From Massalongia carnosa (taxonomy: Eukaryota), in NCBI GenBank assembly GCA_965645245.1, contig OZ287074.1, positions 496,001-560,000 of the forward strand: 64,000 nucleotides of DNA, given 5' to 3'. Below the pieces are notes generated by a model. It was given only the letters and a program-made list of their open reading frames with translations, did no database searches and had not been told where the DNA came from. Position 1 is the first letter of the stretch; every line of letters starts with the position of its first letter. The position numbers and the translations under genes are program-made. Positions 1 through 39,615 of this stretch are shown here, piece by piece.

Positions 1-1155
1 TCGGCTCATTGTGCTAGGTACGCTGGCACGCTGGACAGAGGTACTCAGTACTGACCTTCGTTCAAAGGGAAACCAATGACCTAAATATCTGCAAGTCTTA
101 CTCAGCTGACAAGGATGGGAAACAAGAACATCAGATACTGGAAGGGCTGAACTTCATAGATCTCCAAGGCAAGACGCAGACGCAGATGGAAACTGTAGAA
201 CATAATCTGTACATAGATGGCTAGGTAGAGCCGTGGTTGCATTGCACCAAGAGGTACGGAGTATTTGTGGGGCGGACCGCCGCGTTGGGTACTCAGTATT
301 TTATGTGAACGCCGATGGAACGGCATTCGAACGTTTGATAGCTGATTGGATGGACGCAAATTATACTAGCGAGGTCGGTATCCGATATCTCAGTGCTCGC
401 TTGCCCTAACACCCTAATGCCCCGATACCATTGTATAAAATCAATTCAGTGGTGATCTTAGGGTTGCTGTATCTTAGTCGAGCTAATCAGGTATCTAACC
501 ACCCAACCTAACGAAGCTACGGAGTAAAAGATGCAGGGCTTTGGGGCAGTGCACCAACACAAATATACTCCGTACAAGCATACGACTGATCTCCGCCACC
601 CCCGCATCAAGATAAATACCCGGGAAGGCCGAGGTTCATCCTGACAAATGTTTGCTTCAGCCAATCCCAGTCAATAGCGTCATCGCATGAGGTACTCTGA
701 AGTGTGTACATGTACACTGTACTCTGTAAAGTGTACTTCGTATCGATTTACCCGTATTGCACGAGAATCCGCCTTAGCGTAGACGTGTATATCTAAATTA
801 CCTTAGCCTCAGAAAGCTAATAACAAGCACGGTATGTGAACATTGAGTAAAATCTTCCAGAGTATTGCGAAGGGGTGCTGTATGGTTTTGTTGAAATAGG
901 TATATGATTATGACTATATGGCTATGTAATAAATGACAATGTGTATGACCCCCTGATGTATAACTAAGATGAAGAGTTGCTATGGAGCAGTCTTAAGTGG
1001 TCACCCTCTACTAAGCGAAGTGATAATAGTTTATCCGAGCCTAGGTTGCCACGGTTGCCACGCCCCTGAAAAAAAAACTGGCAACGTGTAAGCGAGCTTA
1101 CCCCACTAAAATTTACCCCTTTTTATCAACATTTCACCTTTACATTGCGATAACC

Positions 1156-1250
1156 TTGCCTCAGTACCTCAGACGTGCGTGGCTCTATGAGCCGGCTAAG
1201 CCCCTCCGGGTTAGCCTATTTTCGCTAAGCCCCTTCGGGTTAGCGTCGCT
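1156..1250 (+). repeat. Left TIR of the AcademH-like element
   Basis: TTGCCTCAGTACCTCAGACGTGCG... is the reverse complement of 7090-7184. Confidence 0.95.
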
Positions 1251-1769
1251 AATTCCCTTCGGGTTAGCGGCCCTTTAGCTGACTACGCATGCTACGGGCG
1301 GCACGTCTGAGCGCAAAACTCTGTATTTTTGTCAGATCCGGCTTATTTTGGTGCGCGCTCATACAAATTTTTGGCTTAACCTCAAAAATCATCAAGAATC
1401 AAGTTGACGGCGGAATCAACAACGCGCAACGACATTTCATAAATTATGTAATAATAGAAATGATGCTTTGATATACATTCTATCGATTAATCAATATTTT
1501 AATTACATATCGATGCAAAATTGAGTCGCAATATCGATCTCGCGACGAGGACTCGACTTTGACTCGAAATTTCGACACCACCACAGCAGACTCAACGGGT
1601 CACTAGCTCCAGTTTTTCATTGTCGGCGCTTCTGATCATTAATCTGATCCTCCGAGCGTTGTTTTCGAAAGCCTAAAATCGTTGAATGTGATGAACTTGC
1701 TTGATGTGCGTTTTGCGGGCTAAGAATCCAACTCGCGAATCGTCGAATATCGCTCGCGAACACATCGAA

Positions 1770-3947
1770 ATGGACGATCCTATAGCGTCGATAACTCGCG
1801 AGCAGGTGACGACCGTGATTTTAAGTAAATTCGGCTTTTATCCAAAGAATGAGCAAGTTGACGCTATCATGACTTTAGCACAAGATCAAAAGGATCTGAT
1901 ATTTATCGCCAAGACTGGATTTGGAAAGAGTATTATCTTTCAAGCTATGCCATTAATGTTCTCTTGTCTTAAGATCGCTTTAATTATCATGCCTCTCAAG
2001 ACCTTAGAAGCTCAACAGTGCAAGAAATTGAGCGTTATCGAGGGATGCAAGCCTTTCGTGTTGGACGGTGATAGTAATAATTCTTCTAATTTAAAGTTAA
2101 TTCGTGAAAACAATTATACGCATGGTGTATATTCAAATTATGATTGAGATAAATATAAAAACTTACTCGTTAATATGAATAGTTTTTACTAGCCCAGAGA
2201 TAGCGACGTCAAAGCTGTTTAATCAGGAGGTTCTGAGGCATCCAAGTTTCTTCTTGAATTTATGTCTTTTAGCTCTTGATGAGATGCATCTTGTATCCGA
2301 ATGGCGAGATTTCCGGCCCGAATACTTCAATCTCGGTGTGCTTCGTACACGATTACCAGATGGTATTCCTTTTCTGGGTGCGTCTGCAACGCTGGATCCA
2401 AGAACCCTAGAGAGCGTTAAAGATCGCTGTGGCTTTGATAACGAAAGTACTGTTATTCAAACAGCGCTTGATCGTCCAGAGATATACATACAGACAAGCA
2501 GTCTACAGCGGCCTATGAACAGCATGATCGATCTTCAACATCTTTTACCAACACGGGCTGAGAGTCCTTTTGATATTCCGAAAACGATTATCTTCATGGA
2601 TTTTCAATTTCATCTATCAAAAAGGCGTGTGCGCTAATGAAAGTATGGATGAATCAATTGTCCTATCCAATTGAGGCTGCTAGTTGGGTCGCGCCTTTCT
2701 TTTCCGACATGGCCACCCAAGACAAAGAAAGGATTGCGGCTCGCTTCGAAATGCCCTCGAATCAATGTAAATTTCCTCGAATCCTGATCGCAACGGATGC
2801 ATACGGGCTTGGTATTGATAATCCAGACGTTATGAGAGTTACGCAATGGCTGCTACCCTCGTCAATGGCGAAGCTATACCAACGTTTAGGTCGTGCTTTG
2901 CGTTGCGGTCGAGGACAGGCGCATTTTACTCTTTTGCATCCTTCTTGGTGCATGGGTCCAAGAAGCGGATCAAAAATGGACGAACAGGACGGATATGACG
3001 CGGGAATCGAGATTGAATCCAAGGCCAGTAAACGCCGCATCAATCAAAAGGATGCTGATCGGCGACGAGATATGCCACCGGGTCTTTGGGAGATAATCAA
3101 TGTGCCTTCAGATGGTTGCGTTCGAGGTATTGGCTTGAATTTCTTCAATGATAAAGTGTATCCAACGTCGGCCTATGTTAAGCCGCAACCTTGCTGTTCA
3201 ATTTGCGATCCAAGTTTTCAGACATCAACAGCCGCCAATGAGATGTTAAATAGAACGGCCGAGCGTGACTCGTCTAGGCGGCCTTGGTTCACCCTTAAAC
3301 TTCGAGAATGGAGGGAGGCCAAGGCGCAGGAAAAGTTCCCAAATTCACATATGCGATACTTCCCATCATTGATAATGCCCGATGAGGTACTGAATTCTTT
3401 GACCACTTGGGCGGATCAGATTGTGGACGAGCCCACCATGCGGCGATGGATTGGTAACACATGGACTGGTATTAGGCCCTACGGCGCCGAGCTTTTAGAA
3501 ATTTTAAAGCGGGGTCAAGCAATGAGATTAGACGAGGGAGACATGTTCGAGGAATGGAAACGACACAACGACATAAAGAGAAAACGATTACCCAGCCTAA
3601 CATGCAACTCCGCCAGTATTGAATTTGAGGAACGGAGGAAAAACTGGATGATCAAACAAGGATATATGTCGAGAAAGGTTTTTAAAAAGCGAAATGCGGT
3701 CAAGAAGAAAGTCTCGAAGGAAAGCGAGAGCACGGAGCCATCGGGCGAGAATCCTGCGCCTAATCACAATATCTCCGATGCGGCGCTCGTTGTTGACAAT
3801 GTTGATGCTCTTAAATCATCGATGAAGGCATCAAAGACCAAAAAAGCGCCTCGAGATCCTATGGAAGCGTTGTCGCTGAATGTACCCATGGCCCTTCCTC
3901 CGACACGATCTAGACAAGAAAGAAAGTGCCCCGTCCGCTACCTCTGA
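1770..3947 (+). pseudogene. Transposon-borne RecQ-family SF2 helicase, frameshifted near 2602
   Basis: Motifs AKTGFGKS (I), DEMH (II), SAT (III), ATDAYGLGID (V) and QRLGRALR (VI), then a Cys cluster (CVR...CCSIC) and an HRDC-like LREWR segment. GT-AG intron at ~2124-2181. The frame changes in the T-run at 2601-2604. Confidence 0.85.
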
Positions 3948-4006
3948 CTCTGTAAAGCCGCGCGGCGCGGATTTACATGACTAGGCTATCTCGTGGTATC
4001 GATGAT

Positions 4007-6685
4007 TTAATCAAAAAACATACCGCCGGATATCTCGAGACGGGCCATTGAAATGACAGGGCTGTCGGGGACCTGCTTTGTTTCATTGACAAAATCGGGC
4101 TCGGCTTCATACTTACCCTCAAGGTCGTCTGTTGAAATTTCTTTTGAAATTTCTTCGGAAAGATACTGCTGATTGTATTTTAATACATTTTCTCCAAGTT
4201 TCTTCAATCCCTCAACATAAAGATTAGCTGTTGGATTAGTTGAAAATCGATCATAGCTTCTTTTACAGAGTGAATTATGCGCTAGTGCCGTAGCCATGCC
4301 CCACACATCCTCTGCGGCCGATTTTGCTGGATGCCTTGAAGAGTTGACTCTTCCAAAGTAAAACTCAACGATTTCTTTGAGCTTCATAAGATATGGACCG
4401 TTGAGTGCCCAGTTCTCGAGCAAGGTGTCACTATACTTTGAAAAATAAGATCGCTCGTGCTGGAACGTCTTGAGGTTATTGTTTAGTATCTCTAAAAGCC
4501 GATCAGTCTCAAAACTCGACTCTTCGTCACCGCGTAAATTGACAAGACTATTCATTAAAATACTTTCCTGTAGCCTTATGGTCGCTGCGGAAGAATCAAT
4601 CGCATGAAGGGTGTATAGAAGAGCTTGCGCATATTTCGGGGTGCCAGCTACGCTTGCCTGAAAGATCACCGTTGCGTGGCGCAATGCGTGACGAAGTAGT
4701 CCAATATCCGCATATTTGATTGCGTATCGAAGTGTTAGATACGATTCAACGTGATCACAGAAGTTCTGATGATTCTGAAATTGTTGATCAAGCGTTGGAG
4801 GAAGCATATCTATTGACGTTGAGGGTAATTCCGCGTGAAGTTTGCGAGATATCCTGCCCAACATATTCATCCAGGTGCCATCCTGCCCGCAAGTCTGCGC
4901 TGTGAGCCACGAAATAGTTGCTTCGATTCGCTGCGGAGCATATCCATCCTTTCGTAAAAACCTAATCCACGTCCCAACGATTCTAGCTTGATAGCTCTGA
5001 ATGATCAGATCCTCTAAGGCCTGGAAATCGTTCGGCTGCACGACACGAGCGCGGCCCCACCGATCGGCGGCATATTGAAGAGTCGAAGGATCAACCGGCT
5101 GGGCCTCTCCCCAATGTATTTTATGAATAAGCTGCAGCATGTTAAAGCGAAGATGCCATAACCCTAATCCCGGTAAAATCCAGTCGAACCGATCGAAAGA
5201 TTGCTCCGATATCCCACGACGTAATTCCTTGACAGATTGCATTCTCGACCATGTCTTGAGGTCACCATAGATAAGCCGAATGACGCTCGCAAACGTCGAG
5301 TCATCCTCCTTGAACTTGAACTGTCGCACAAATATATCCTCCAATATTTGAATATTATTAGATGTTGTGCTCTCATCCTTCATGACTGGTTTGATAGGAA
5401 TGTAATTGGTCTTGTATTTTTTCATCTTATTCAGCACGGGCATTGCAGTCGACCAAGGAAGTTGAACGTCGCCGATCTCTGGGCCATAAAGCGCTCGAAT
5501 CGCTGACTCTAGATGATGAAGACGAATCTCGGTACGCGGTGCATTAGCGATTGAGCGCGGTATATACACCTCGTCCTGTATTGAACTCACCTGCATCTCG
5601 AGATCACCAGTCTCCAGCTTTCGCGCAATTCTTTCAGCTGATAAAAGATGCGTGGCGGGGCGCCACATATCCTGCCTCAAAGCGCCGGCATCGAATCCTT
5701 GCCCCTGGAAAATTAGAGCGGTAGTGATTGATCTGACGTCTCTATTATCCCCCGTGCGCTCTCCTCGTTTACCTTCTGCGAAGTCAAAGTTATCGTATGT
5801 CAAGATCATGTTTGAGCCTTGTCCTAGCATCTGAACCTTTCGTTCGGCCTCCTTAATCAAGGACAACATGCGCCGCTGCAGGGTAGTATATGACATCGTC
5901 AGGTCAAAATGACAGAGTGTATCTAGAACTCGCCGCCTCGCCCCACCTTGATAAATATAAAGGCCTAAGACGGACTGAATATTGGTCGCCTTATTTGGTC
6001 GCAATTTGTGACAAAGCATTGCCAATATAACGGTGTGCCGGCCGCTGGGAGAATCCAACGTCACATCGAGAGGTTCCTGCGGGCGAGCCTCGCGACAAAC
6101 ACTATCAATTAGCTCAAGCCATCGTGGCGCCAACTGCTTGGCGGCAGATGCAGCAAGTTTAATAGCCTCCAAGGTCCCAAACTCGACTGTCGCAGAGGGC
6201 GGCTGGAAAGGGCCAAAGGCTGCGTGATCTGCCAAAGCTTTGATTTCTTCACGAAGCACATCCGCGGCCCAAACCCATCCTCTCTCGCGAAGGATAGTGG
6301 ATATTCTACCAGGCCCAATGAGGCTTGAAAAGTCTTCTTGCCGCACAATATCGACATAGACAAAATCGAAGAGCTGGCCTTGCGCCTTTCGCATACTATG
6401 ACGGGCTCGATTCTTACAAAGTGTTGATAAAAAATCTTTTACCGACCAATTTAGAGAGCTCAGAAATTTAAGCACCTCAACCAGCTTGTCGTAATCTGAT
6501 ATGCGCCGGCGGTGGCGTTTCGCGCCTCCATTTTTTTCAGGTAAGGCAGGAGGGGAGGAGGAAGAGGGTGAGCTATCATTACTGCCTGACGGCGATGGGT
6601 GGGGCCGCTTGAGCGCACCGGCGGGAGTCAAGGGACTTGTCCGTAGGTCGGTAAGTGGCGAGGAGGGGCCCCCGACAAGAGCCAT
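4007..6685 (-). CDS. Academ-type (DUF6589-like) DDE transposase, 892-aa ORF
   Basis: Uninterrupted ORF inside the TIRs, with motifs YDNFD, YGDLKT, GLWH and DRLLE that fit the Academ catalytic pattern. A possible in-frame intron lies at ~5528-5590. Confidence 0.75.
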   Translation of the reverse strand: MALVGGPSSPLTDLRTSPLTPAGALKRPHPSPSGSNDSSPSSSSPPALPEKNGGAKRHRRRISDYDKLVEVLKFLSSLNWSVKDFLSTLCKNRARHSMRKAQGQLFDFVYVDIVRQEDFSSLIGPGRISTILRERGWVWAADVLREEIKALADHAAFGPFQPPSATVEFGTLEAIKLAASAAKQLAPRWLELIDSVCREARPQEPLDVTLDSPSGRHTVILAMLCHKLRPNKATNIQSVLGLYIYQGGARRRVLDTLCHFDLTMSYTTLQRRMLSLIKEAERKVQMLGQGSNMILTYDNFDFAEGKRGERTGDNRDVRSITTALIFQGQGFDAGALRQDMWRPATHLLSAERIARKLETGDLEMQVSSIQDEVYIPRSIANAPRTEIRLHHLESAIRALYGPEIGDVQLPWSTAMPVLNKMKKYKTNYIPIKPVMKDESTTSNNIQILEDIFVRQFKFKEDDSTFASVIRLIYGDLKTWSRMQSVKELRRGISEQSFDRFDWILPGLGLWHLRFNMLQLIHKIHWGEAQPVDPSTLQYAADRWGRARVVQPNDFQALEDLIIQSYQARIVGTWIRFLRKDGYAPQRIEATISWLTAQTCGQDGTWMNMLGRISRKLHAELPSTSIDMLPPTLDQQFQNHQNFCDHVESYLTLRYAIKYADIGLLRHALRHATVIFQASVAGTPKYAQALLYTLHAIDSSAATIRLQESILMNSLVNLRGDEESSFETDRLLEILNNNLKTFQHERSYFSKYSDTLLENWALNGPYLMKLKEIVEFYFGRVNSSRHPAKSAAEDVWGMATALAHNSLCKRSYDRFSTNPTANLYVEGLKKLGENVLKYNQQYLSEEISKEISTDDLEGKYEAEPDFVNETKQVPDSPVISMARLEISGGMFFD

Positions 6686-7089
6686 GGCTTTCGTCAGATA
6701 GCTTCAATCTAGATAAATCATACAATACCATTGATTGGCCGTCGTTATTCATATCATCATGATCTTTGTAACTCAATGTAATCGCGCCACATGAAAATAA
6801 TCAGTTCATCAACCTCAAAATTGAGCGAAAGCGAACAATTTATCACTTAATCGACTTTCACATCGCTTTTCTTAGCCTGACAGTAGTTATAACACATGAT
6901 TATCGAGTCATCCATCTTGAGAGGTGCGTTTTTGGTATAAAATACAGTCTCTGGTAAACTAATACGACCCTAATCATTGTATTAAATCCATAAAAGGAAT
7001 GGTTGCACTGCTAAAATTTTTATTACGCGGATCTGGCCGTAATTTTGAGTTTTGCGCTCAGACGTGCTATCGCACTGATGTTAGTCAGC

Positions 7090-7184
7090 AGCGACGCTAA
7101 CCCGAAGGGGCTTAGCGAAAATAGGCTAACCCGGAGGGGCTTAGCCGGCTCATTGAGCCACGCACGTCTGAGGTACTGAGGCAA
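7090..7184 (-). repeat. Right TIR of the AcademH-like element
   Basis: Reverse complement of 1156-1250. Additional subterminal similarity between ~7028-7067 and ~1301-1340. Confidence 0.95.
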
Positions 7185-7194
7185 CGATAACCAG

Positions 7195-8067
7195 TCAATT
7201 GAATAGCCGGATAAACCCATTAGCCAGGTGAGCATCGAGGTAGGCCCTTAGCACTGTGAGCTCTGTTTCTGATAGGCTATAAATAGGTCCATACGGAGGC
7301 TGCTTTCCATCCACGAGGTCGATCGCATGATCATGTAGCCCGTGCTCTGGTAGCTCGGCTGCACTATCTTCCGAAAAGACATCTGCGAAATCCTTATAAG
7401 CCTCAGGGACCTTGATTTCTTGTACCTTCACTGAGGCTATTCTAGCTCGACGGCTCGAATGGATGTTATCTACACCTAGCGCCTTAGCATGGACCACGTA
7501 GGTCGGTGTATCTTCTGATAACGCCTCTTCTATGAAGACTTCTGGTTCTATAATCTCTATCCGATGAGTAGTCATCAGGGCCGATTGAACGCTTAGTTCT
7601 CGCCAATTCAGGGTCCTTGCTGACCAATCGATATCGGGATTGGCTAGCTGCAGGAATGGCATGCCCAACACGATATTATGAGGTATATCTGCTATTAGGA
7701 ATGTTTCCTCAAAGAAACGTTGCTGACCTAATTGATCAGTTACCCCGAACACCAACAGACCCATGCCATGTGTCATGACTTGCTGGTGATTAATAGCTTC
7801 CAAACTGACGCTGGAGTGTAACACTGTCAGAGCGTATATATTTGCGTAAGCTCTAGAAATAAGGTTAACTTCACTTCCGCTGTCAATTAGTGCTTTTGCT
7901 GTTTCTTTAGCGTGTGTTATTTCGTACTCTATGCAGGGTGCGACTTCCAATGTCTTAGGACTTGCCGATGCCTCTTTGATAGTAGTCGCCGGTAGGGAGG
8001 CAGCAGCGGCGACTATGCTTTTTTTGGATGGGGACAGTCTTTTACCCAAGGTTCGAGGGATCCACAA
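7195..8067 (-). pseudogene. Ty3/Gypsy pol fragment: aspartic protease plus pre-RT region, truncated
   Basis: ALIDSGSEVNLIS protease motif, IVLGMPFL and DHAIDL...PPYGPIYSLS...NGFIR, then an abrupt end before the RT core. Confidence 0.9.
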
Positions 8068-8899
8068 TTATAGCAGCTATTTTTGTTATTGTCTTGTATC
8101 TCGGTCACAGTGCCTGCGGAATGGCATTGCTATTGGTCGACGGCGCGCTAGTACCAGCCGGAGCCGCATTCCTGCCGCCTCGGCCTCTTCCGCCTCTATT
8201 GCCTCTTCCGTGGTGACTACCTCGATGACCTCTTCCGCCTCGACCTCCGCGATGATTAGTTGGATATGGTTCTCGGCGGCCCTGATCGTTAGAAGCCGGG
8301 GCACCTTGCTCCCGCTTGGAGTAGCCTCTACCTGTTGATGATGGCAACACAGCCGCTCCCTCAGCTAGTTGTGCATCACTGATGAATTCCGCTATGGTAG
8401 CGGGATGTCGATGACCTAGTGCTAAGGAATTCCGAATTATTGGTATGACTCCCGTACGAAGCTTCTGGACCATCTGTTCTTCGGTAATAGGATGTTCCGG
8501 ATCTGCATCGGCTAATATTGTTCGTAGGCGTTGTAAGTAGGCCGCAAAGGATTGAACAGTATCATTGGGACGTTGTTGTGCATGATGGTACTGCATCCAG
8601 GTTCGATCTTTGAAAACTTCTGTAGAGCCTAGTTGATTCATGAGGTTCTTTTTGAACTCCTTCCAGGTAAGATTCAGATGACCCCCTCGTGATAGTATCT
8701 CATGCCAATTGTCGCTAGGGGTGTCTCGAAGGTAGCTGCCTGCATAGGCTATACGACGATCTTGTTCCGTTTCAGGCATGCCACTAGTGTTAAAGACAGC
8801 CTCGCATTGTCTGGTGAATTCGAACAAGGTCTTATGGTCCTTGCCATAATACGGGTCGGGCGACTTAGCTTTGAGGTTATACCTGACAGATCGTTCCAT
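8013..8899 (-). pseudogene. Ty3/Gypsy gag fragment (capsid, Gly/Arg-rich linker, degenerate zinc knuckle)
   Basis: Retrotrans-gag-like ORF 8105-8899 (PDPYYG, TWKEFK, QQRPNDTVQSF). The knuckle CYNCGSLEPWVKDC (His replaced by Pro) is in another frame, ending at TAG 8013-8015. Confidence 0.82.
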
Positions 8900-8926
8900 G
8901 GAGCGAGGAGAGCTATTTACATCAAA

Positions 8927-10033
8927 TTAATGACCAGTCATGGCCCCCTCAGCTGAGATGACGTCCTTTAGCCGTTGAGGCATTGATCGTACTCTCTCAT
9001 TAATAAACTCCTGACTGACTGTCGCCCAGCCCTCACAAATCAATGCTTTTAAGCTCGCTTCGTCCCAATGAGGATACTTTTTAATATGCTGCTTTGTGGG
9101 CTGCCAGCTGTTTTCAATAGGAGCCAAATCAGGTGAAGAAGAGCAGTTGAAATAATGCTCTAAACGATGATCCTCCTTCCATTTCTTTACTGCGTTTCTC
9201 GTCCTGCCTGTGCCATGCCCGGAATCACCATCTTCTTCGAGCACAAAATCATCCCCTCGCTCTAGCCACGGCTTGACAACGGGCTCAAGTATTGAGTTAA
9301 TGTATACTTGATGCGTCATCTTGCCATTGCTGTTGCCCGGCACTTCGTAGAATATAATATCCGACTTGAAGTTGTAGCCTACAGCCGCCCAACAATGCAG
9401 TCTCTTTCGATCTTTCTCCGCTGGCGCATCACGATGTTGTATACAATCCCATCTATAGCGTGTGCCTGGCTGACGTATGATGCGTAATTTGCCCTCGGGC
9501 CCGTAGGAGAAATGAACTTCGTCACTAAATCGTACTCGATACCAATCTTCTGGTTTAGGATATTTGGCCAGCATTATATGAGCGTATTCCACCCGTTTTT
9601 GCATAGGAGGGTCGGCCAGCCATCCTTTGACGCAGGCTAGACATTTCTCGTAATTCAATGCAGCACGTAGCACGTTATGCATTGTACGACCCACAACATC
9701 TGCTCCAACTTCCATCGCAACTTGTTCCCATGTCAAGCGTTTTCCTTCGAGTTGTAGCTCATCTTCCTGAAGCAGCCGATCAGCCTCTCGTACTTGCTCG
9801 CCTGTGATTTTTGATCGTCTTCATCGCGTTTCTACAAGCTCTGTATGATGACGAGTACGTGTCGAAGCTCCTTTGCGAATAATTCTGTAGCCAGCTCGTT
9901 CCGAAACGCCATACTTCTTGAAAAGATTTCGTGGATCATGTACGATGCCTTCATCAAGAAGATATTCATGAATTCCTTGAAGTTTAGCTCGAATGGGAGT
10001 ATCGTAGTGAGTTGCACGTTGCTTACGAGGCAT
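8927..10033 (-). pseudogene. Tc1/mariner-superfamily transposase (DD38E spacing) with one in-frame stop
   Basis: ORFs 9821-10033 and 8927-9736 share a frame and are separated by TGA at 9821-9823. Motifs FSDEVHF, EEDGDSGH and SPDLAPIEN; 38 residues counted between the second D and the E. Confidence 0.88.
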
Positions 10034-13000
10034 GTTGGTGTGGATGGTTGATGAAAAGGGGGGAATTTTAATGGGGTAAAATCGCCTACACGTTGCCAGT
10101 TTTTTTTTCAGGGGCGTGGTTGCTTAAGACACCGCTAAAAGTCTTATGTAACCGATACGGTTAGACTGGATCTGATCTAATCTAATCTGTTGTGCTGGTA
10201 GAAGTTGAACATTCAACAGGTTTCTTGTAGTGGTCATATTATCGTTCTGGCATGTAGTTAGCTCTTGCCATATAAATATTGAGATGAACGGGTAGACTTA
10301 TAAAAAAATCTAGCTGCCCTCACTCTCTTCAAGATAGAGAGCAAGAACAGCAGCACTGCCTCCTCAGCCATTCCCAACGCTACTTCCCCACCCCGAAGAT
10401 GGCGTCCACCACCACGAATGACCACATGTGCACAAACAATTCTATGCTTCGACCCATCATCTACCTGCCCCCAGCGTTTCCCAGCTCCTCAAGTAAAGCC
10501 TGTCATCATTACCGCCAGCCGATGCTATCACCCAGTGCCCGAACTTATCATATTGGCCACCGATAGATTTTCAGTCAAAAAAAGCTTCGCTGACAAGCAT
10601 GGCGGTGAGTCGCACAGAGCAAACGCCTGGTACAGACAAGCCTAAGCTTTGATCCTCACTCGAGAGAGGTCCCGCTCGGGCGCTTGTGATCTCTACACGC
10701 CGCAGAGCCATGATTACCAGCAAAGAACGTCCTGACCTTCGGTCTATTGGTACCTCTATGAATCATTGATGGCCATTATGGGAAGAGCAAAAGGCTCGCT
10801 GCTAGACGAACTTATCGGGTAAAGCAGCGCAAAAGCTCTGGAATGTACCAGAGGGAGGAGATTTGGTGTATCCACAAGGTCTTTGCTAGTGCTCCTGTAG
10901 CTAGACTGATGGAAAATGCGAATCTCTGACATCGCCATACCTCTCTGATCGCAGAACCTTTTTGCTCAGCCATGCTTGCCTTGTCGTCATCATGTATGAA
11001 CCATCATTCCACATTCCGGCTACCTCACCGATCACACCTCCTCACAACGGTCAACTCTGCAAGTCCAATAATTACTCAGAGTCTCAACATCCAAACCCCC
11101 AGTGCTCTTACGAGCAAGGGACGATCTCTCATTTCGTAATGCAATACCCTCAGAGACTAGTCTTTGTTTCCTCTCCTTACCTTAAAAGGCAGGAGGGCAT
11201 TTAAAAGCGGACAAAGTACATCCTCAAAAACCGCTTGCATCTCATATTGAGAGGTATGGATGTCTGCATAGCCATAAAGGCCATACAATCAAGATTATCG
11301 GCGCTCACCATCGACTCGTGTGCTAAAACACACGAGGAGGTAATTATCGCGACTGGTAGGGATAAGCTATCTTGCGAGGCTTCTACGCCGATGGCTGGTG
11401 CCGTGGCGTAGGTTTTGCGAGCTTGCTTCATCAAAATAATGATGTGATACCAAAAGATGAATTAGACACGAGGTTCCACAAGAATTCAAGAACTCTCTTG
11501 GAGTAGGGGCCATGTACGGAACGTCTTCGCCAGCGGCCTCAGACATGATTCATCATACAGAATCTAAATCCCTTGTTAGGCCCCACATGCTTATGAAAAA
11601 TCGGGGACAATTGCACCACGCTACGCAGCTTTTCGTTGTCTGCATGTGACCTTCCAAAGTCTATATGCTTCAACTTGCGCCTTAAAAACGCCAGAGTTGT
11701 CCAGAGCAGATGTCTCGCCAAGAGCTTCACAATGCCAACACTGGAGCCAGTAAAAACAAAGAAAGCGGTTACAAACCACAAACGTTCATTTCGTGAGCAT
11801 GAAAATCTCGCAGCATCATCCTTGTCAGGCCTCGAGGGCTTGAAACAGGTATTAGACAAACGCAACCAGCGAGTAGATTCCCAGCTTTTAGCATAGGCGA
11901 AAAGTCCTAGCTCGAAACGAATGTAGTTTGAACCTCACGTAGGCTGAACTGCTTGACGCAGCCAGACATGCTCGTTGCTCTCTCAAATTTACAGACAGCA
12001 AAGCCAAAGAGAGAACGACTTCGGAATTTACAGCAAACAGTAATGAAAAGCGGCCGAAGCGAGCCACCCACGCTCAAAGCACATTTTAGTTAGGCTTCAC
12101 AAAGAAGATAGTCGCAGGATGACATCAAGGCAAAGTCTCACTAGCTCGTGAAGATCCCAAAGACAATTCTCACAAGGAGGTGCCTGTCATATCCCATCTA
12201 GTGTCTTTCATGACTTTGGATCATGTAAGGCATCGAAAAAAACATCCCATATATGACCAGAGCATAATGCCCAGAAGAAAGTACTGACGCGCGTCCTCGA
12301 CTGAAGATCTTACCAATTGCGGCGCATAGTAAGTCCTGTCAACGTCCAAAGGACACTGGACGCCAGAATCTCCTTTCACTTCCTTCTGTCCCTATCACAC
12401 CGGCCGGAGCCAGAGTTCAACAGACATCGAGAGACTAATCAATGATCTGACAGCTTTTAATTGCGAAGCTTAGTCCTCACAGAGAACTGAAACCGACGAA
12501 TACTTAGGGTTAAGTTCCGAAACCTATCCTCCCCACATTACCCTTTACGGTCTCTCGACCGCAGCACATTGGGCACAAAATACCGTCTCCCATGTGAGAC
12601 CATGCTATGAGGCTCAGGAAACGGCACGTATACCAAATGGGCAGGTGCGTGCGGGGGGCGTTTAGACATTCCTGGCTCGAAGCTGGAAGATGGGGTTCGG
12701 GAAACTGTGGGGAAGGTGAACTGCTTGTATTGTGTAGAGCGGGCGAGAGACGTTATGGATAAAGAGACATTTGAGGACGTAAAGGAAGGCTGTGGAGAGT
12801 CTGCCATTCTGATTTGGTATGATGGTGAGGATGAGCTCTGGGGTATGGTCTGGTCGAACTTGATAACAAGGGCAGGATGGAACAATACACGGCGGTTGGA
12901 AGAAGAACTGAGAGGAAACGGGGGCTGAAGGTGGAGAGTTGGTTAGGTACGCGTCAACAACTTAGCGTGTTTTTTTTTGGTCCTGGCGCTAGTACTCATG

Positions 13001-31518: not shown

Positions 31519-33392
31519 CGGAGGCGAATCTCAAAAGTAATGATAATACGCTAAAAGCTAGTGCCGTAATTTAAATTTTCCGTACCGAGCAAATTTTCCC
31601 CTTTTCTTTCCCCTTTTCTCATCCCAAATCATTTACGAACCAACATTTGATCAAATCATCATCATGGTCAATAAATCAGCTGATATTTCTTTGCGGGCTC
31701 AGGTCTTGACGTTGTCTTATTGCACCCCGGCCTCAATTGAATTTATTGCAGCTACTACAGGTTATTCTGTCCCCAACATTTATCGTATTCGTCGCATTGC
31801 CAGGGATCGAGGATTTGATCCCGCCATTTCTTTGCAGGTGCTTGATAAATACGCCCGTCATGAAGAAAAATCTGGTCGACCGAGAAAGGCTACTACTGAG
31901 AAAGAAGATGAAGTCATTGATCTAGTCATAAAAGACAGATACGCCCGTGAAAAAACCAGTGCCCAGTTGGCAAGAGAAGTTGGACTGTCCAGATGCACCG
32001 TGTGGAGAATCCTGAAACAAAGAGGCTATAAAAAAGTCAAACCGTCGTATAGACCAGGGCTTACTCCTGAAATGAAAGCGGCTAGACTGGCTTTTTGTCT
32101 CCTGTATAAAGACTGGACCGTGGAGGATTGGAAGCGGGTTATTTGGTCAGATGAAACAGCAATAGTGCTTGGTCACCGTCGCGGAGCTGTCAAAATTTGG
32201 CGTACAACCAAGGAAGGAAGAAGACCAGTCAAATCCACCGTACGTGCCAGGTGGCATGGGGCTCATGAATTCATGTTTTGGGGATGCTTTTCCTACGATT
32301 GGAAGGGGCCATGTCATTGCTGGAAACCGGAGACAAAAGCGGAAAAAGCGGAAGCCAAAACCAAACTTGACGAGATGAATGCTGCATTGGAAGCCAGTGA
32401 GAGATTAAATTGGGAGCTGACCAATGGAATGAGACGTCTTTCAACTCGCAATTTACTAGGAAAAAAGCCGCAATGGAAATGGGATGAGGAACATGGAAAG
32501 ATGATCAGAAAAGAAGGTAAAGGAGGCATTGATTGGTGGCGGTATCAAAACGTCATACTTCTGCCAAAACTGATTCCTTTTGCTCAGCAATGCAATGCAA
32601 AAAGAAGAGAAGCCGGATTGTCTGAAATGATCGTACAGGAAGATAAGGCTCCGTCTCATGCTTCCAAGCATCAGATTCCCATCTTCTCTCGTCATGGCAT
32701 CGAGCGTCTTTTATGGCCCGGAAATTCTCCTGATCTCAACATGATTGAACCCTGCTGGCCCTGGATGAAGCGACGTACAACTGCCAAAGGTCCTCCTAGT
32801 TCTCGGTTAATTGCTGAATCTATGTGGCATCGCACTTGGGACGATCTACCTCAGGAGAATATTCAGGCATGGATTGAAAGAATTCCACGTCACATTGCAA
32901 AAGTCATTGAATTGGAAGGTGGAAATGAGTATTGCGAAGGACGTTTGGGCGTTGATGGACGGACCAAAGAAGGAAAAATGCGACTTCAACAGCTGAGGGA
33001 AGAATTGCTCAGTAATACAGCAAAACCAGCTTCTTCTTCTTCTTCTTCTTCTTCTTCTTCTGTGGCGTCAACGAGACCATCATCCAGACAATCAAATGAT
33101 GATACACCCAGCCCGTTGAATGTCAGGGCACTTACCCCTGAGCCCCCTACACAGAAGCCATTGACACCCCCCTTATTGAGAAAAAGAGCCGTTTTATCTC
33201 CGAAAAATCACCTTCCCCCACGCATTCAGAAGGTTATTCGTACTGCAGCCAGTTTCAGACCAAAAAGACGTTGATTAGATGGTTGGTAATGGCATTTGTA
33301 GATAGTTGGTAGAATTTCAGGCTCGGTATGGAAAATCTAAATTACGGCGCTAGTCTTTAGCGTATTATCATTACTTTTGAGATTCGCCTCTG
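31519..33392 (+). mobile_element. Full-length Tc1/mariner DNA transposon, 1874 bp
   Basis: ~72-bp TIRs (31519-31590 and 33321-33392, a few mismatches). TA on both sides (31517-31518, 33393-33394). Confidence 0.93.
31664..33274 (+). CDS. Tc1-family transposase (DD34E), intact, 536 aa
   Basis: HTH with SGRPRK, then WSDET, QEDKAPSH and SPDLNMIE (34 residues from D to E). Poly-Ser comes from a (TCT)n tract at ~33030-33061. Confidence 0.93.
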   Translation: MVNKSADISLRAQVLTLSYCTPASIEFIAATTGYSVPNIYRIRRIARDRGFDPAISLQVLDKYARHEEKSGRPRKATTEKEDEVIDLVIKDRYAREKTSAQLAREVGLSRCTVWRILKQRGYKKVKPSYRPGLTPEMKAARLAFCLLYKDWTVEDWKRVIWSDETAIVLGHRRGAVKIWRTTKEGRRPVKSTVRARWHGAHEFMFWGCFSYDWKGPCHCWKPETKAEKAEAKTKLDEMNAALEASERLNWELTNGMRRLSTRNLLGKKPQWKWDEEHGKMIRKEGKGGIDWWRYQNVILLPKLIPFAQQCNAKRREAGLSEMIVQEDKAPSHASKHQIPIFSRHGIERLLWPGNSPDLNMIEPCWPWMKRRTTAKGPPSSRLIAESMWHRTWDDLPQENIQAWIERIPRHIAKVIELEGGNEYCEGRLGVDGRTKEGKMRLQQLREELLSNTAKPASSSSSSSSSSVASTRPSSRQSNDDTPSPLNVRALTPEPPTQKPLTPPLLRKRAVLSPKNHLPPRIQKVIRTAASFRPKRR

Positions 33393-34787: not shown

Positions 34788-36347
34788 ATGATGATTACCA
34801 CGCAACAAACTAGCAATGATGAGCACGCGGATGAAGAGACCTCTTTAGTCAGAGAGCGGTATTCTGCCTTTAGTAAAAGCCAAAAAAAGCTCATCATATT
34901 TACGGCTGCGCTCGCATCCACCTTCTCGCCATTTTCTGCAAATATTTACTATCCTGCTCTTAACTCGATAGCAGCGGACCTACACGTTAGCGCCTCGCTG
35001 ATGAACTTGACCATCACGACTTATATGGTGTTTTCCTCCTATGCCTCCTATAATCTTATCGTCTTGATGCCAAAGAACTGACAAGAAGCTTAGATTTTGC
35101 AGGGTCTGGCGCCGACTTTCGTGGGTTCTTTGTCGGATACGGCGGGAAGAAGGCCTGTTTATATCATCTGTTTTGGTATCTACATCGGTGCAAATATCGG
35201 GCTAGCTTTGCAGAGGAGCTATGTTGGGCTTCTCTTGCTTCGTGCCCTTCAGAGTTCAGGCAGTAGTGGCACCGTGGCCCTTTCAAATGCTGTTGCTGCT
35301 GATCTTGTAACATCATCAGAACGCGGGATATATCTCGCCTTAGCTTCACTGGGTGCGATCCTGGGACCATCTCTTGGTCCGATTCTCGGGGGTCTACTGA
35401 GTCAAAACCTTGGTTGGCAATCGATATTCTGGTTTCTAACCATCTTCGCTGTAATCTTCTTTGTGCCTCTCCTTCTATTCTACCCCGAAACATGTCGGAA
35501 TGTGGTAGGAGATGGATCGATTCCGCCGCCAGCGTGGAACAAGTCTTACCTGTCCTATTTGAACGAGAAGAGGAGGGCCAAGAAGGGGACTCCAATCGAT
35601 TATGCCGGACGAGATATTCTTGCCCAAAACCGTCACATCAAGTTTCCTAATCCACTCACTACGCTCAGGCTACTTGTGGAGCTTCCAACCGGACTCGTTC
35701 TCCTATGTAACGGCATAGTGTTTGCGGGACTGTTCACCGTAACCTCAAGCATCCCCTCGCAATTCAAACTTATCTATGGGCTCAACGATCTACAAGTCGG
35801 ATTTGTGTTCATTCCGATAGGCCTCGCAACAATGTTTTCCGCAGTCATAAATGGATATCTGATTGACTGGAATTATGAAAGGATAGCCAGCAGTAGAGAT
35901 ATGCTAGTTACTAAGGGCAGAGCAAGCAATTTTCCAATCGAAGAAGCGCGCCTGCAAATCGCACTTCCCATGCTCTATTTCGGGGTTGCGGTTATAGTCA
36001 CCTACGGATGGGTGCTCCAAGCCCAGACGCATATTGCAATACCTCTAGTTCTTCTTTTGTGCATAGGCTATTCTATTACGGCTTGTTTTGATATTATGAA
36101 CGTTTTGATTGTCGACCTGAATTATGATTATCCAGCCACTGCGACTGCGGCTAATAATCTTGTAAGGTGCTCCCTTGGAGCTGGGTCTACAGCCATGGTT
36201 ACTCCAATGATTGATGCGATAGGCCGAGGGTGGGCATTTACAGTTGTTGCCACTATATGGCTCATCATGAGCCCACTATTACTAGTGATCTCAAGACAGG
36301 GACCCAAATGGCGTGAGGATAAAGACGCCAAACGAACAAGAACATGA
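34788..36347 (+). CDS. MFS drug:H+ antiporter (DHA1, Qdr-like)
   Basis: [28 protein letters not shown] and PET motifs with many hydrophobic segments. Intron at ~35028-35093. Confidence 0.92.
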
Positions 36348-37098
36348 AGAGGGATCATTTACCGAAGAGATCTTGAGGGTGAGCATACTATTGAGGAGAC
36401 AGGCCTATTGGGCATGGACGAAAGAATTGGTTGTTGACGAAGGCAGCTGGTAAAGCCAGCAAGCAAGTAGAAAATTTGTTGTTGCATTTGTACAGTTTCA
36501 GATTGAGCTCAACTTAAGTAACACCGTTTAGGCATTTTCTTTCTTTCTGATACTACGAGGCAAGGAGTGATGATATATAACAGCGGAAATTGCGCGTCAG
36601 AGCCAGATGTGTCTTACTACCCTGTATAGGTTTAACTTATGCCTGATATCAATCTAGGAGAGCACTTTCAACCATTTAACAAACAAAAAAATCCAAAATA
36701 ACGGGAATTTCCCATCTGCATCATATTACTACCGAAAGAGCCATTCCTATGCATTTCCTACTAGGCCTTACTTTACACCAATGACCCTTGCAACCCTTTG
36801 CGATCTTGGTACTAAGTCTTCTTTCCCCGTGGCAGGTTTTTCTTGCATAGTCTAGATTTCTCTTAACCTTGTCTACTTGCTCTAGATACCTACCTATACA
36901 CTATTCATGGGGTATGATCGATATATGGCTTAGCGTGTGCCTTTAATTTTTCTGGGCTTTTTTGGGGGGGATGAACAATAAAGTCTTACCCGGGGAGCTC
37001 AGTCCAAATAATACGGTAGTCATCCTAAAGTGAAATACGATCACACCAACGGAACACACGGATCACTCTGGAAGCACTCGACTGTGTCGGATTATATA

Positions 37099-37170
37099 GG
37101 CCTGCTAGGTCAGAAACCTCTACGTGGTGCAGGCTATCAACACCTCCTCGGAGGTGGCCAATATCTGATC
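37099..37170 (+). ncRNA. HDV-like self-cleaving ribozyme (predicted fold)
   Basis: P1 GGCCUGC/GCAGGCU with a G1-U wobble; P2 GGUCAGA/UCUGAUC; P3 ACC/GGU around L3 UCUACGU; P4 CACCUCC/GGAGGUG; J4/2 CCAA. G1 is the first base after the TSD. Confidence 0.8.
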
Positions 37171-37251
37171 ATCGCCAACGCTGAAGCCCACCTCGGTGGC
37201 CGTTTGAAAGATCAACGTCTCTACTGATCATTCATCACTTCGAAGGCATAC

Positions 37252-37573
37252 AAAGCCCATTCATTCGGAATGGCCACACCCCTCAGGCGGAAGCCTTTCA
37301 CCTCATCGAAAAAGTCCATTCAGTCGGAATGGCCACACCCCCCAGGCGGAAGCCTTTCACCTCATCGAAAAAGCCCATTCAGTCGGAATGGCCACACCCC
37401 CCAGGCGGAAGCCTTTCACCTCATCGAAAAAGCCCATTCAGTCGGAATGGCCACACCCCCCAGGCGGAAGCCTTTCACCTCATCGAAAAAGTCCATTCAG
37501 TCGGAATGGCCACACCCCCCAGGCGGAAGCCTCTCACCTCATCGAAAAAGCCCATTCATTCGGAATGGCCACA
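37252..37573 (+). repeat. 59-bp tandem repeat, ~5.4 copies
   Basis: Unit AAGCCCATTCAGTCGGAATGGCCACACCCCCCAGGCGGAAGCCTTTCACCTCATCGAAA with few substitutions. Confidence 0.97.
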
Positions 37574-39475
37574 TTTTCACATCTTCATTTATACGACACC
37601 ACGATCTGCCCTCGATCATGGCCAGTCTATCATCTATTGAGCCAAAACGGTTAAAGAGAGAGAATGTTCGTCGAACGTGTGGAGATACACTGTCTAGTTC
37701 ATCGGGTCTATAGGATTCCTAGCGCTTGAATATCTGGGTGTATGCACCGCGTGGTAGAAGAACGATCTCGTTGCGTTCAATATGGAATAAAAGGGAGTGG
37801 TTTTACCCTGGGGGCCAGTTTTCCACTTCCGGACTGTTGTTTATGTACATAAATAGCAGTCACAGCGTCATATCCTAAGGATGCATACGCTTAATGAATA
37901 AATAAAAAAATAAAAATAAAAAAAAAGTCGGATTATATATGTGCCCAAGGAGTAGAACATGATAACTTTCCGACTTCAAAACTTTCCGAATCTCAGCAAA
38001 GAATTAATTCTCTGCTTGATTTGCTCCCAAACGCGTCAGCGAGGCCTAGATTTGACTTACCTACCGCTCTTCCCCCCTCACTAGAGACGCCTACTCCGGA
38101 ATAATCCCGCTCCCTTCATAAAGAACTCTGTTCCACTTCCTCCGCCCCCGCGTGTTTCCATTTCGTTCCCAAAAGCCCAGTATTCCAAACGTGGAAGATT
38201 TTAAAAAGGGGTTTGCATATGGACAGGGGGAACGGCAAGAGCCATGAAGGCGTGGAAGCTGGGCGTCTTGAGATTAACACCCCTTGAACTAAGACTAGGA
38301 AATGAGAAATCTATCGCTCTTGCTATGAGGACGCTGCCTGTCTCCTTTATCATGTGTCGAAGACTGCGCAAGAGGCATGTGCCTTTTCATACACACAAAA
38401 AGCGGGTAATCGCTGTAGACAACCTCGTTCTTCTGCAAGGCAACCAATATTTTTAATCAATTCGTATAATTCTACATGCCAACTTGAGGCTTCTTCCAAG
38501 CAGGTTCCGCGATCAGCAGTTACTCGACCGATATGGCACTACGTTACATTAGGAACAGCCCATACAACATGAGTGTAAGTGGAGGAATCTCCGATGAAAG
38601 GAGTAGGTAAACAACCTCCACATCTCTGGGATCGGATGGTTCAATACCGAGTTTACTCCAGCATTTTGTACTCCGCCTTAGGTCATAAAAGCTTTTCTGC
38701 TGCAGTTTCCTTTTTGATTTCTCGTATGATGTTGATTACCTTAGAGTATTAATTATATTTGCTTGGATTACCTGTCTTAGTACTTCGTACTTGAGGCTAG
38801 TACTAGCTCTGTCTGGCCATGTTTGTAGCATTTAGCGACCGGACTAGCTTGCCTCGAGCTCGGAAAAGGAAGACCCCAATACCGTTGCTGGGAGGAAAAC
38901 AGAAAATATAAAGAAAATTGCGGACGCTTTGGCTCATAAATTTTTCATGCGTTTCACCTCTCTTACTTCAGCTATTCGCTGCTGGAGAGATCCTTTTTCT
39001 GCTTGAGCAAAGAAATGCCCATAGGATTGAAATAAAAAATTATACATGTAAAAAAATACCCTACATATTGGAATAGAATAGAACCTTCAATCCCACAATC
39101 GGACAGTCTCATCCCGGGGGAGCCTAGCGCGCCCATCGCGATGAGTCATCCATTCGGGACCACGATTTCTTTCGTGATGATCTTTCCAGCAATGCTTTAC
39201 CACGTCCTCGTGGGGATCGCGCCCTAATACAAGCGACCGAAATTTTGCATGGCATGGGTGAGATGGTGATAACTTTCTGTTTGAAAATCGAGCCGAAAGC
39301 GCATGATTGTCGTTGAAAACGAGCTCGTAATCCCCGCATTTTCCCTCTCAAGTCAAGTCACGGTTTTTCCCACTAAAGGGACCAGAGGTTTTTTTTGAGA
39401 CTGTCAACTTTTGATCTTGAAACTGACTTCACATTTGCCTGTAGCGCCCGCAATTTACGAGCACGGACGACTTCA

Positions 39476-39615
39476 CAACGAAAACTGACAGTCTCAACGA
39501 AAACTGACAGTCTCAACGAAAACTGACAGTCTCAACGAAAACTGACAGTCTCAACGAAAACTGACAGTCTCAACGAAAACTGACAGTCTCAACGAAAACT
39601 GACAGTCTCAACGAA
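39476..39615 (+). repeat. 19-bp tandem repeat, 7 perfect copies plus a partial copy
   Basis: (CAACGAAAACTGACAGTCT)x7 followed by CAACGAA. Confidence 0.97.

Follow-up and report, generated by a model that had tools for sequence, protein, structure and literature searches.

The plus strand of the window, the 64,000-nt stretch of DNA analyzed here, carries at 37099-37926 what is very probably a copy of a high-copy, non-coding, non-LTR, SINE-like ascomycete retroelement, with an HDV-like ribozyme as its first 72 nt and self-cleavage by that ribozyme making the 5' end of the element RNA. The observed part of this reading comprises the fold itself, the coincidence of its first base (G37099, G1) with the element boundary, a TSD, an A-rich tail, multiple copies with diverse upstream flanks, an empty site, and low variation of the ribozyme among the variants listed. 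All coordinates are collected in Table 1.

Table 1. Features of the retroelement, its ribozyme, and the surrounding window (window coordinates)
Feature	Coordinates	Strand	Basis or detail
Left TSD copy, 13 bp, GTCGGATTATATA	37086-37098	.	exact direct repeat, 841 bp apart
HDV-like self-cleaving ribozyme (predicted)	37099-37170	+	direct reading, Rfam alignments, scripted fold test
P1, 7 bp	37099-37105 with 37129-37135	+	GGCCUGC with GCAGGCU
P2, 7 bp	37108-37114 with 37164-37170	+	GGUCAGA with UCUGAUC, one G·U among the pairs
P3	37116-37118 with 37126-37128	+	ACC with GGU
Loop L3, 7 nt	37119-37125	+	UCUACGU
P4, 6 bp	37141-37146 with 37151-37156	+	loop CUCG
Predicted catalytic cytosine (C75 equivalent)	37158	+	first base of J4/2 CCAA, directly after G37157
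Element body, 5' part common to family copies	37171-37251	+	high summed contig depth; variants at 37182-37239
Tandem array, 59-nt unit, 5.5 copies	37252-37573	+	TRF, 96% matches; variable or absent in other copies
Element body, 3' part common to family copies	37574-37899	+	high summed depth; variants at 37574-37831
A-rich 3' tail, 27 nt (24 A, 3 T)	37900-37926	+	sequence; depth at flank level from the bin starting 37928
Right TSD copy, 13 bp, GTCGGATTATATA	37927-37939	.	exact direct repeat of left copy
Frame with DUF6589, 898 aa	4010-6703	-	Pfam (E 3e-62), fungal family
Ascomycota telomerase RNA segment	11155-11234	-	Rfam RF02462, 55.5 bits
Frame with partial AMP-binding enzyme domain, 291 aa	29867-30739	-	profile positions 78-381
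Tc1/mariner-like DNA transposon	31562-33271	+	570-aa frame, Tc3-type HTH and DDE_3
MFS transporter ORF	35094-36344	+	nearest upstream same-strand gene
Perfect tandem repeat, 19-nt unit, 7.4 copies	39476-39615		100% matches

Boundaries, copies, and variation of the element

The insert measures 828 bp and opens with the first base of the ribozyme. The flanking 13-bp TSD, together with the A-rich tail, defines 37099-37926 as an insert that starts at G1; the TSD 13-mer has only two matches in the window at a tolerance of one mismatch, against 0.08 expected. Two body segments common to family copies flank the 59-nt array, the 3' segment presumably serving recognition by a LINE reverse transcriptase. 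The element is SINE-like without being a classical SINE, as no tRNA-, 7SL-, or 5S-derived head was found. ARAGORN detects no tRNA in 36000-39000, and the only Rfam match in 36900-37400 besides the HDV models is an sR44 snoRNA on the minus strand (15.5 bits, cut-off 45); a window-wide Rfam scan adds no further match elsewhere in the element. ORFs of at least 150 aa in the element occur only across the 59-nt array, and the one tested (37228-37710) has no Pfam match. Pfam finds no reverse transcriptase in the 14 long ORFs searched, out of 45 in the window, and no second element copy is found within the window by blastn.

Ten public runs from eight studies contain part of the window, none of them on record as RNA. 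Contigs of four runs (X1, X4, X5, and X6) were placed on the window at 80% likeness, yielding 1981, 120, 212, and 26 pieces, respectively. Summed contig depth, which is not equal to copy number, is 832 in the flanks and 1.1e5-6.1e5 in the element in X1, 25.7 and 633-12,036 in X5, and 5.1 and 63-886 in X4; in X6, the flanks have none and most of the element has 1.4-28. The depth rises at the bin holding 37099 and drops back at the bin starting 37928. The element is a high-copy repeat family in several labelled organisms.

Upstream breaks fall at 37098/37099 in all four runs, in 8+11 contigs of X1, 2+6 of X4, 6+10 of X5, and 1+2 of X6, and the consensus agreement of the upstream flank is only 0.42-0.73 in rows with at least two contigs. 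This poor agreement among the upstream continuations points to many different insertion sites that have G1 as their common 5' boundary. An empty site of a related genome is present in a 16.8-kb contig of X5 (record 16), a lichen-metagenome run, in which the sequence runs continuously from 37096 to 37934; its flanks differ by ~2-3%, and it departs in length by 4 nt, within a TA run, from what is simply expected. The filled site is seen in X4 (record 9), where a contig spans the 5' junction without differences. Recent activity of the family is possible, given its abundance and the difference between related genomes in carrying this insertion; if so, it would provide a useful marker as well as a system for studying how promoter-less retroelements get transcribed.

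These copies also bear on a very improbable reading in which the ribozyme has a function for the host locus, such as processing the 3' end of the upstream MFS transporter transcript, with the repeat boundary being incidental. The transporter ORF does lie on the same strand and ends ~750 bp before the element, but the ribozyme is part of the repeat, with depth up two orders of magnitude from 37099 and many different upstream flanks, and the same locus lacks the ribozyme in X5. The presence of a ribozyme at this site is explained instead by its place in the retroelement, of which it forms the 5' terminus.

Within the element, none of 30 variant positions falls in 37099-37181 (among the 40 of 106 variant rows listed for the four runs), an outcome with a chance of ~0.03 if the listed variants were spread evenly over 37099-37831. 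The ribozyme is the least variable part of the element among the variants listed, and rarer variants inside it may exist among the 66 further rows. The array is far from constant, as many contigs in X1, X4, and X5 skip or replace it, for instance by joining 37279 to 37575, which removes 295 nt or five units. In X4, four contigs match the ribozyme through 37170 and then diverge (agreement 0.6), a hint that the ribozyme module may also head another body, possibly that of an autonomous partner.

The ribozyme fold and its departures from consensus

Direct reading of 37099-37170 locates every pairing of the HDV-like double pseudoknot that the earlier note had described, each helix at the coordinates given there. 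The helices follow the order P1-P2-P3-P3'-P1'-P4-P4'-P2', the nested double pseudoknot of HDV-like ribozymes. A purine-pyrimidine pair, G37099·U37135, forms the base of P1 at the predicted cleavage site, which lies 5' of G37099, and an A37140·G37157 pair adjoins P4. The minimum-free-energy fold calculated by ViennaRNA, which cannot model a pseudoknot and thereby checks only the nested part, contains P1 and P4 at -26 kcal/mol (z -2.4), with 2 of 200 shuffles being as stable.

The segment G37156 G37157 C37158 C A A aligns with GGCUAA/GGCGAA of the Rfam models, sharing their GGC-N-AA frame, and the position of the putative catalytic cytosine is the same in all five aligned AU-type ribozymes described below. 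By analogy with the known mechanism of the family (PMC13635239), C37158 would act as the catalytic cytosine. In L3, U37119 and G37124 occupy the positions aligned with the metal-binding reverse wobble (U20/G25 equivalents).

Two departures from the consensus distinguish this fold. J1/4 consists of A37136 and U37137, confirming that P1.1 can contain only a single Watson-Crick pair (U37121-A37136), with C37120·U37137 as a possible second, non-Watson-Crick pair in place of the two G:C pairs of HDV. The other departure is A37115, which is unpaired between P2 and P3; the bulged A that had been placed in P2 is valid as an alternative arrangement, in which A37115 pairs with U37162 and A37163 bulges.

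The earlier note had left it between a natural variant and a partly decayed copy. Crystal structures of the HDV-like ribozyme of C. briggsae contain a P1.1 of U:A + C:U, and this ribozyme is reported to be among the fastest nucleolytic ribozymes, while the P1.1 of an Ackermannviridae phage ribozyme is U:A over U:U (PMC13635239). The window ribozyme resembles that of C. briggsae in the pair types of its predicted P1.1, with U:A and C·U for two G:C, and in having the predicted catalytic C in J4/2; the C. briggsae host is a nematode, and the likeness lies in the described P1.1 pairs and the position of this C. Three features are reported for the fungal HDV variants, an additional base separating P2 from P3 among them, and members of that group from P. 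chrysogenum and A. niger cleave in vitro (PMC5640933). The lack of a frequent variant among those listed within 37099-37181 indicates that AU in J1/4 is the family's own state. Together, the C. briggsae match in P1.1, the recurrence of the core in four other ribozymes, and this lack of a frequent listed variant favor the natural variant over decay. The comparison supports the view that both departures belong to a natural variant type that is active elsewhere, and catalysis by this copy is predicted from it.

The weak P1.1 also speaks for the main alternative, an unlikely one, in which the fold is real yet non-cleaving in this family or too slow to matter. The 5' boundary would then reflect an internal promoter whose transcripts start at G37099, with the fold retained for reverse transcriptase or protein binding or for RNA stability. 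A transcription start at G1 would produce an equally sharp 5' boundary without cleavage, and in L1Tc/NARTc, the same 77 nt are both promoter and ribozyme (PMC3383444). P1.1 at 37099-37170 has just one Watson-Crick pair, and a weak P1.1 of the CPEB3 type is associated with slow cleavage (PMC13635239; PMC4836649). However, the catalytic-core positions are all intact, a P1.1 of this type goes with fast cleavage in C. briggsae (PMC13635239), and no frequent variant is present in the ribozyme among the variants listed. The same core is moreover found at tRNA 3' ends in phage and metagenome DNA, where cleavage alone makes sense. A cleaving ribozyme at the head of the element remains the preferred reading.

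Chance controls and recurrence of the core

The earlier note had proposed covariance models as a check, and the HDV models align to exactly the same coordinates, with scores under both gathering cut-offs. The best Rfam match, RF02682 (HDV-F-prausnitzii), covers 37099-37170 end to end and scores 31.4 bits, with 44 required (E 5e-4 when 501 nt are scanned, 0.063 across the whole window), and RF00094 (HDV_ribozyme) reaches 25.6 bits, with 50 required; no Rfam family attains its gathering score at the ribozyme site. The P3-L3-P3' segment of the window, ACCUCUACGUGGU, fits the RF02682 consensus, as does the CAAC ... GGC-N-AA frame, whereas J1/4 is AU (2 nt) in the window ribozyme, AGG in the RF02682 consensus, and GG in the theta rows examined from PMC10879173.

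The window sequence passes a scripted full-fold test that 0 of 57,000 flank-shuffled controls around the same core pass, and 0 of 56,000 such controls pass a second, relaxed test. The fold begins precisely on the first base of the mobile element. The HDV-like fold at 37099-37170 is confirmed as real and beyond chance. A chance resemblance of ordinary repeat DNA to HDV helices, for which the sub-threshold Rfam scores and the window-wide E of 0.063 would speak, is extremely improbable in view of both sets of shuffled controls, the start of the match on the exact element boundary, and a 27-nt core held in common with ribozymes that covary elsewhere.

Public metagenome and viral contig collections were scanned for the core carrying AU in J1/4, revealing its recurrence in four independent phage or metagenome ribozymes in which P1, P2, and P4 differ yet pair. 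Among metagenome contigs, one of nine loci (L004) has the complete HDV fold; the other eight are protein-coding look-alikes without the fold, and no fungal copy was recovered from this nine-locus scan. L004 shares an identical 27-nt core with the window and has different P1, P2, and P4 helices. Its ribozyme (561-634, minus strand) begins on the base right after a tRNA-Met gene (635-707, minus strand), on a contig carrying three tRNA genes, and it likewise scores under the Rfam threshold (39.2). Among viral contigs, 4 of 10 distinct AU-type hits fold and amount to three independent sequences (L013/L015, L014, and L016), and L013, like L004, directly follows a tRNA gene.

In a five-sequence alignment of the AU-type ribozymes, all 75 cells of P1, P3, and P4 are paired and 13 of 16 pairs are changed on both sides, which 0 of 500 shuffles match; the set was preselected for pairing and the alignment fitted to the structure, and the independent weight lies in the pass rate against shuffled controls. 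P2 differs among all five ribozymes and pairs in each. The sequences were aligned by means of a covariance model derived from the window ribozyme, as a MAFFT version mis-registered the helices and was not used, and a wider alignment with AGG-type hits, in which some rows are misaligned, was left out of the counts.

Combinations of L3 and J1/4 differ in how often they accompany a fold. L3 CU with J1/4 AU folds in 4 of 10 distinct hits and L3 CC with J1/4 GU in 3 of 6, all of one family; neither L3 CC with AU (0 of 2) nor L3 CU with a 2-nt J1/4 of AG (0 of 3) does so, and the canonical AGG form folds in 5 of 7 under the relaxed test. P1.1 appears to covary between L3 and J1/4 in the phage hits, the numbers being small. 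The GU-type hits include three IMG/VR contigs (L039, L041, and L042) with HDV-like ribozymes carrying L3 CC, J1/4 GU, and J4/2 CUGA; their P1.1 would be C:G + C·U, a covarying counterpart of the U:A + C·U in the window.

Adjacency to a tRNA gene gives L004 the appearance of a theta ribozyme, but the theta rows examined in the supplement of PMC10879173 carry GG in J1/4, so that the theta-ribozyme search of that study would likely miss L004. The window copy itself is not a theta ribozyme: no tRNA adjoins it near 37099, and it heads a eukaryotic retroelement.

Proposed mechanism, known relatives, and surroundings

In the mechanism that we infer, the element would be transcribed within a longer read-through RNA, or else from an internal promoter, and the ribozyme part of the transcript would fold into the nested double pseudoknot. 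C37158 would serve as the general acid, with Mg2+ held near U37119/G37124 and the G37099·U37135 region. Cleavage 5' of G37099 would be the in vivo origin of the 5' end, releasing an element RNA that starts with a 5'-OH G37099 and retains the ribozyme. A putative helper LINE would then provide, in trans, the reverse transcriptase that copies this RNA from the A-rich tail by target-primed reverse transcription, and the insertion would yield a 13-bp TSD and full-length copies starting exactly at G1.

The scheme is the one established for several known elements. R2 and its SIDEs, L1Tc/NARTc, RTE, and baggins carry an HDV-like ribozyme at the 5' end, where self-cleavage of a longer transcript sets the exact 5' end, and their non-coding derivatives keep the ribozyme together with the 3' end for the reverse transcriptase (PMC6765202, PMC3414825, PMC3383444). 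The window element resembles them in having a ribozyme as its first bases. Unlike the R2, L1Tc, and RTE systems, it resides in an ascomycete, an assignment of the window that follows from its Ascomycota telomerase RNA segment, and one run with the element is labelled lichen metagenome. The window element is not rDNA-specific, its 13-bp TSD lying at an ordinary intergenic site beside an A-rich tail.

HDV-like ribozymes are already known in fungi, where variants described by Li and Breaker (2017) cleave at the base of P1 in vitro and have "widely variable gene associations" (PMC5640933). The window ribozyme shares with these variants a fungal host and the extra unpaired base between P2 and P3 (A37115). 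In the consensus of the fungal variants, the cleavage-site pair is C-G and P4 contains an E-loop, in contrast to the G·U pair and plain 6-bp P4 of the window ribozyme, which stands nearer to the classical consensus. With only the extra base present out of three features, the window ribozyme was not assigned to the fungal variant class.

PMC5640933 contains no word starting with "transpos" or "retrotransposon". Searchable full-text literature, whose scope takes in few subscription journals, yielded no fungal HDV-like ribozyme linked to a retroelement and describes ribozyme-headed retroelements for metazoans and trypanosomatids only. The window element would extend the partnership of ribozyme and retroelement from animals and trypanosomatids to ascomycetes. 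It would also give a fungal HDV-like ribozyme a biological context, the formation of retroelement RNA 5' ends, where the main fungal survey gave variable neighborhoods only. To the weak U:A + C·U core of P1.1 lately seen in crystals, the set described here adds natural, covarying cases.

A wider reading, which we put forward tentatively as a possibility, holds that fungi harbor a class of promoter-less, ribozyme-headed, SINE-like retroelements whose 5' ends arise by HDV-like cleavage of read-through RNA, and that the fungal HDV-like ribozymes reported earlier are largely the heads of these elements and of their LINE partners. If this is true, the X4 contigs that diverge after 37170 would mark an autonomous partner or the shuffling of modules between elements.

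The surrounding window holds other mobile and repetitive sequences. The Tc1/mariner-like DNA transposon lies ~4 kb upstream of the retroelement, and the perfect tandem repeat occupies an intergenic position downstream of it. The DUF6589 frame belongs to a family that we take to be possibly transposon-related. On the minus strand, the frame with the partial AMP-binding domain lies where ORFs of both strands overlap and may represent a gene fragment or an exon, and the telomerase RNA segment matches model positions 1285-1381 of 1858.
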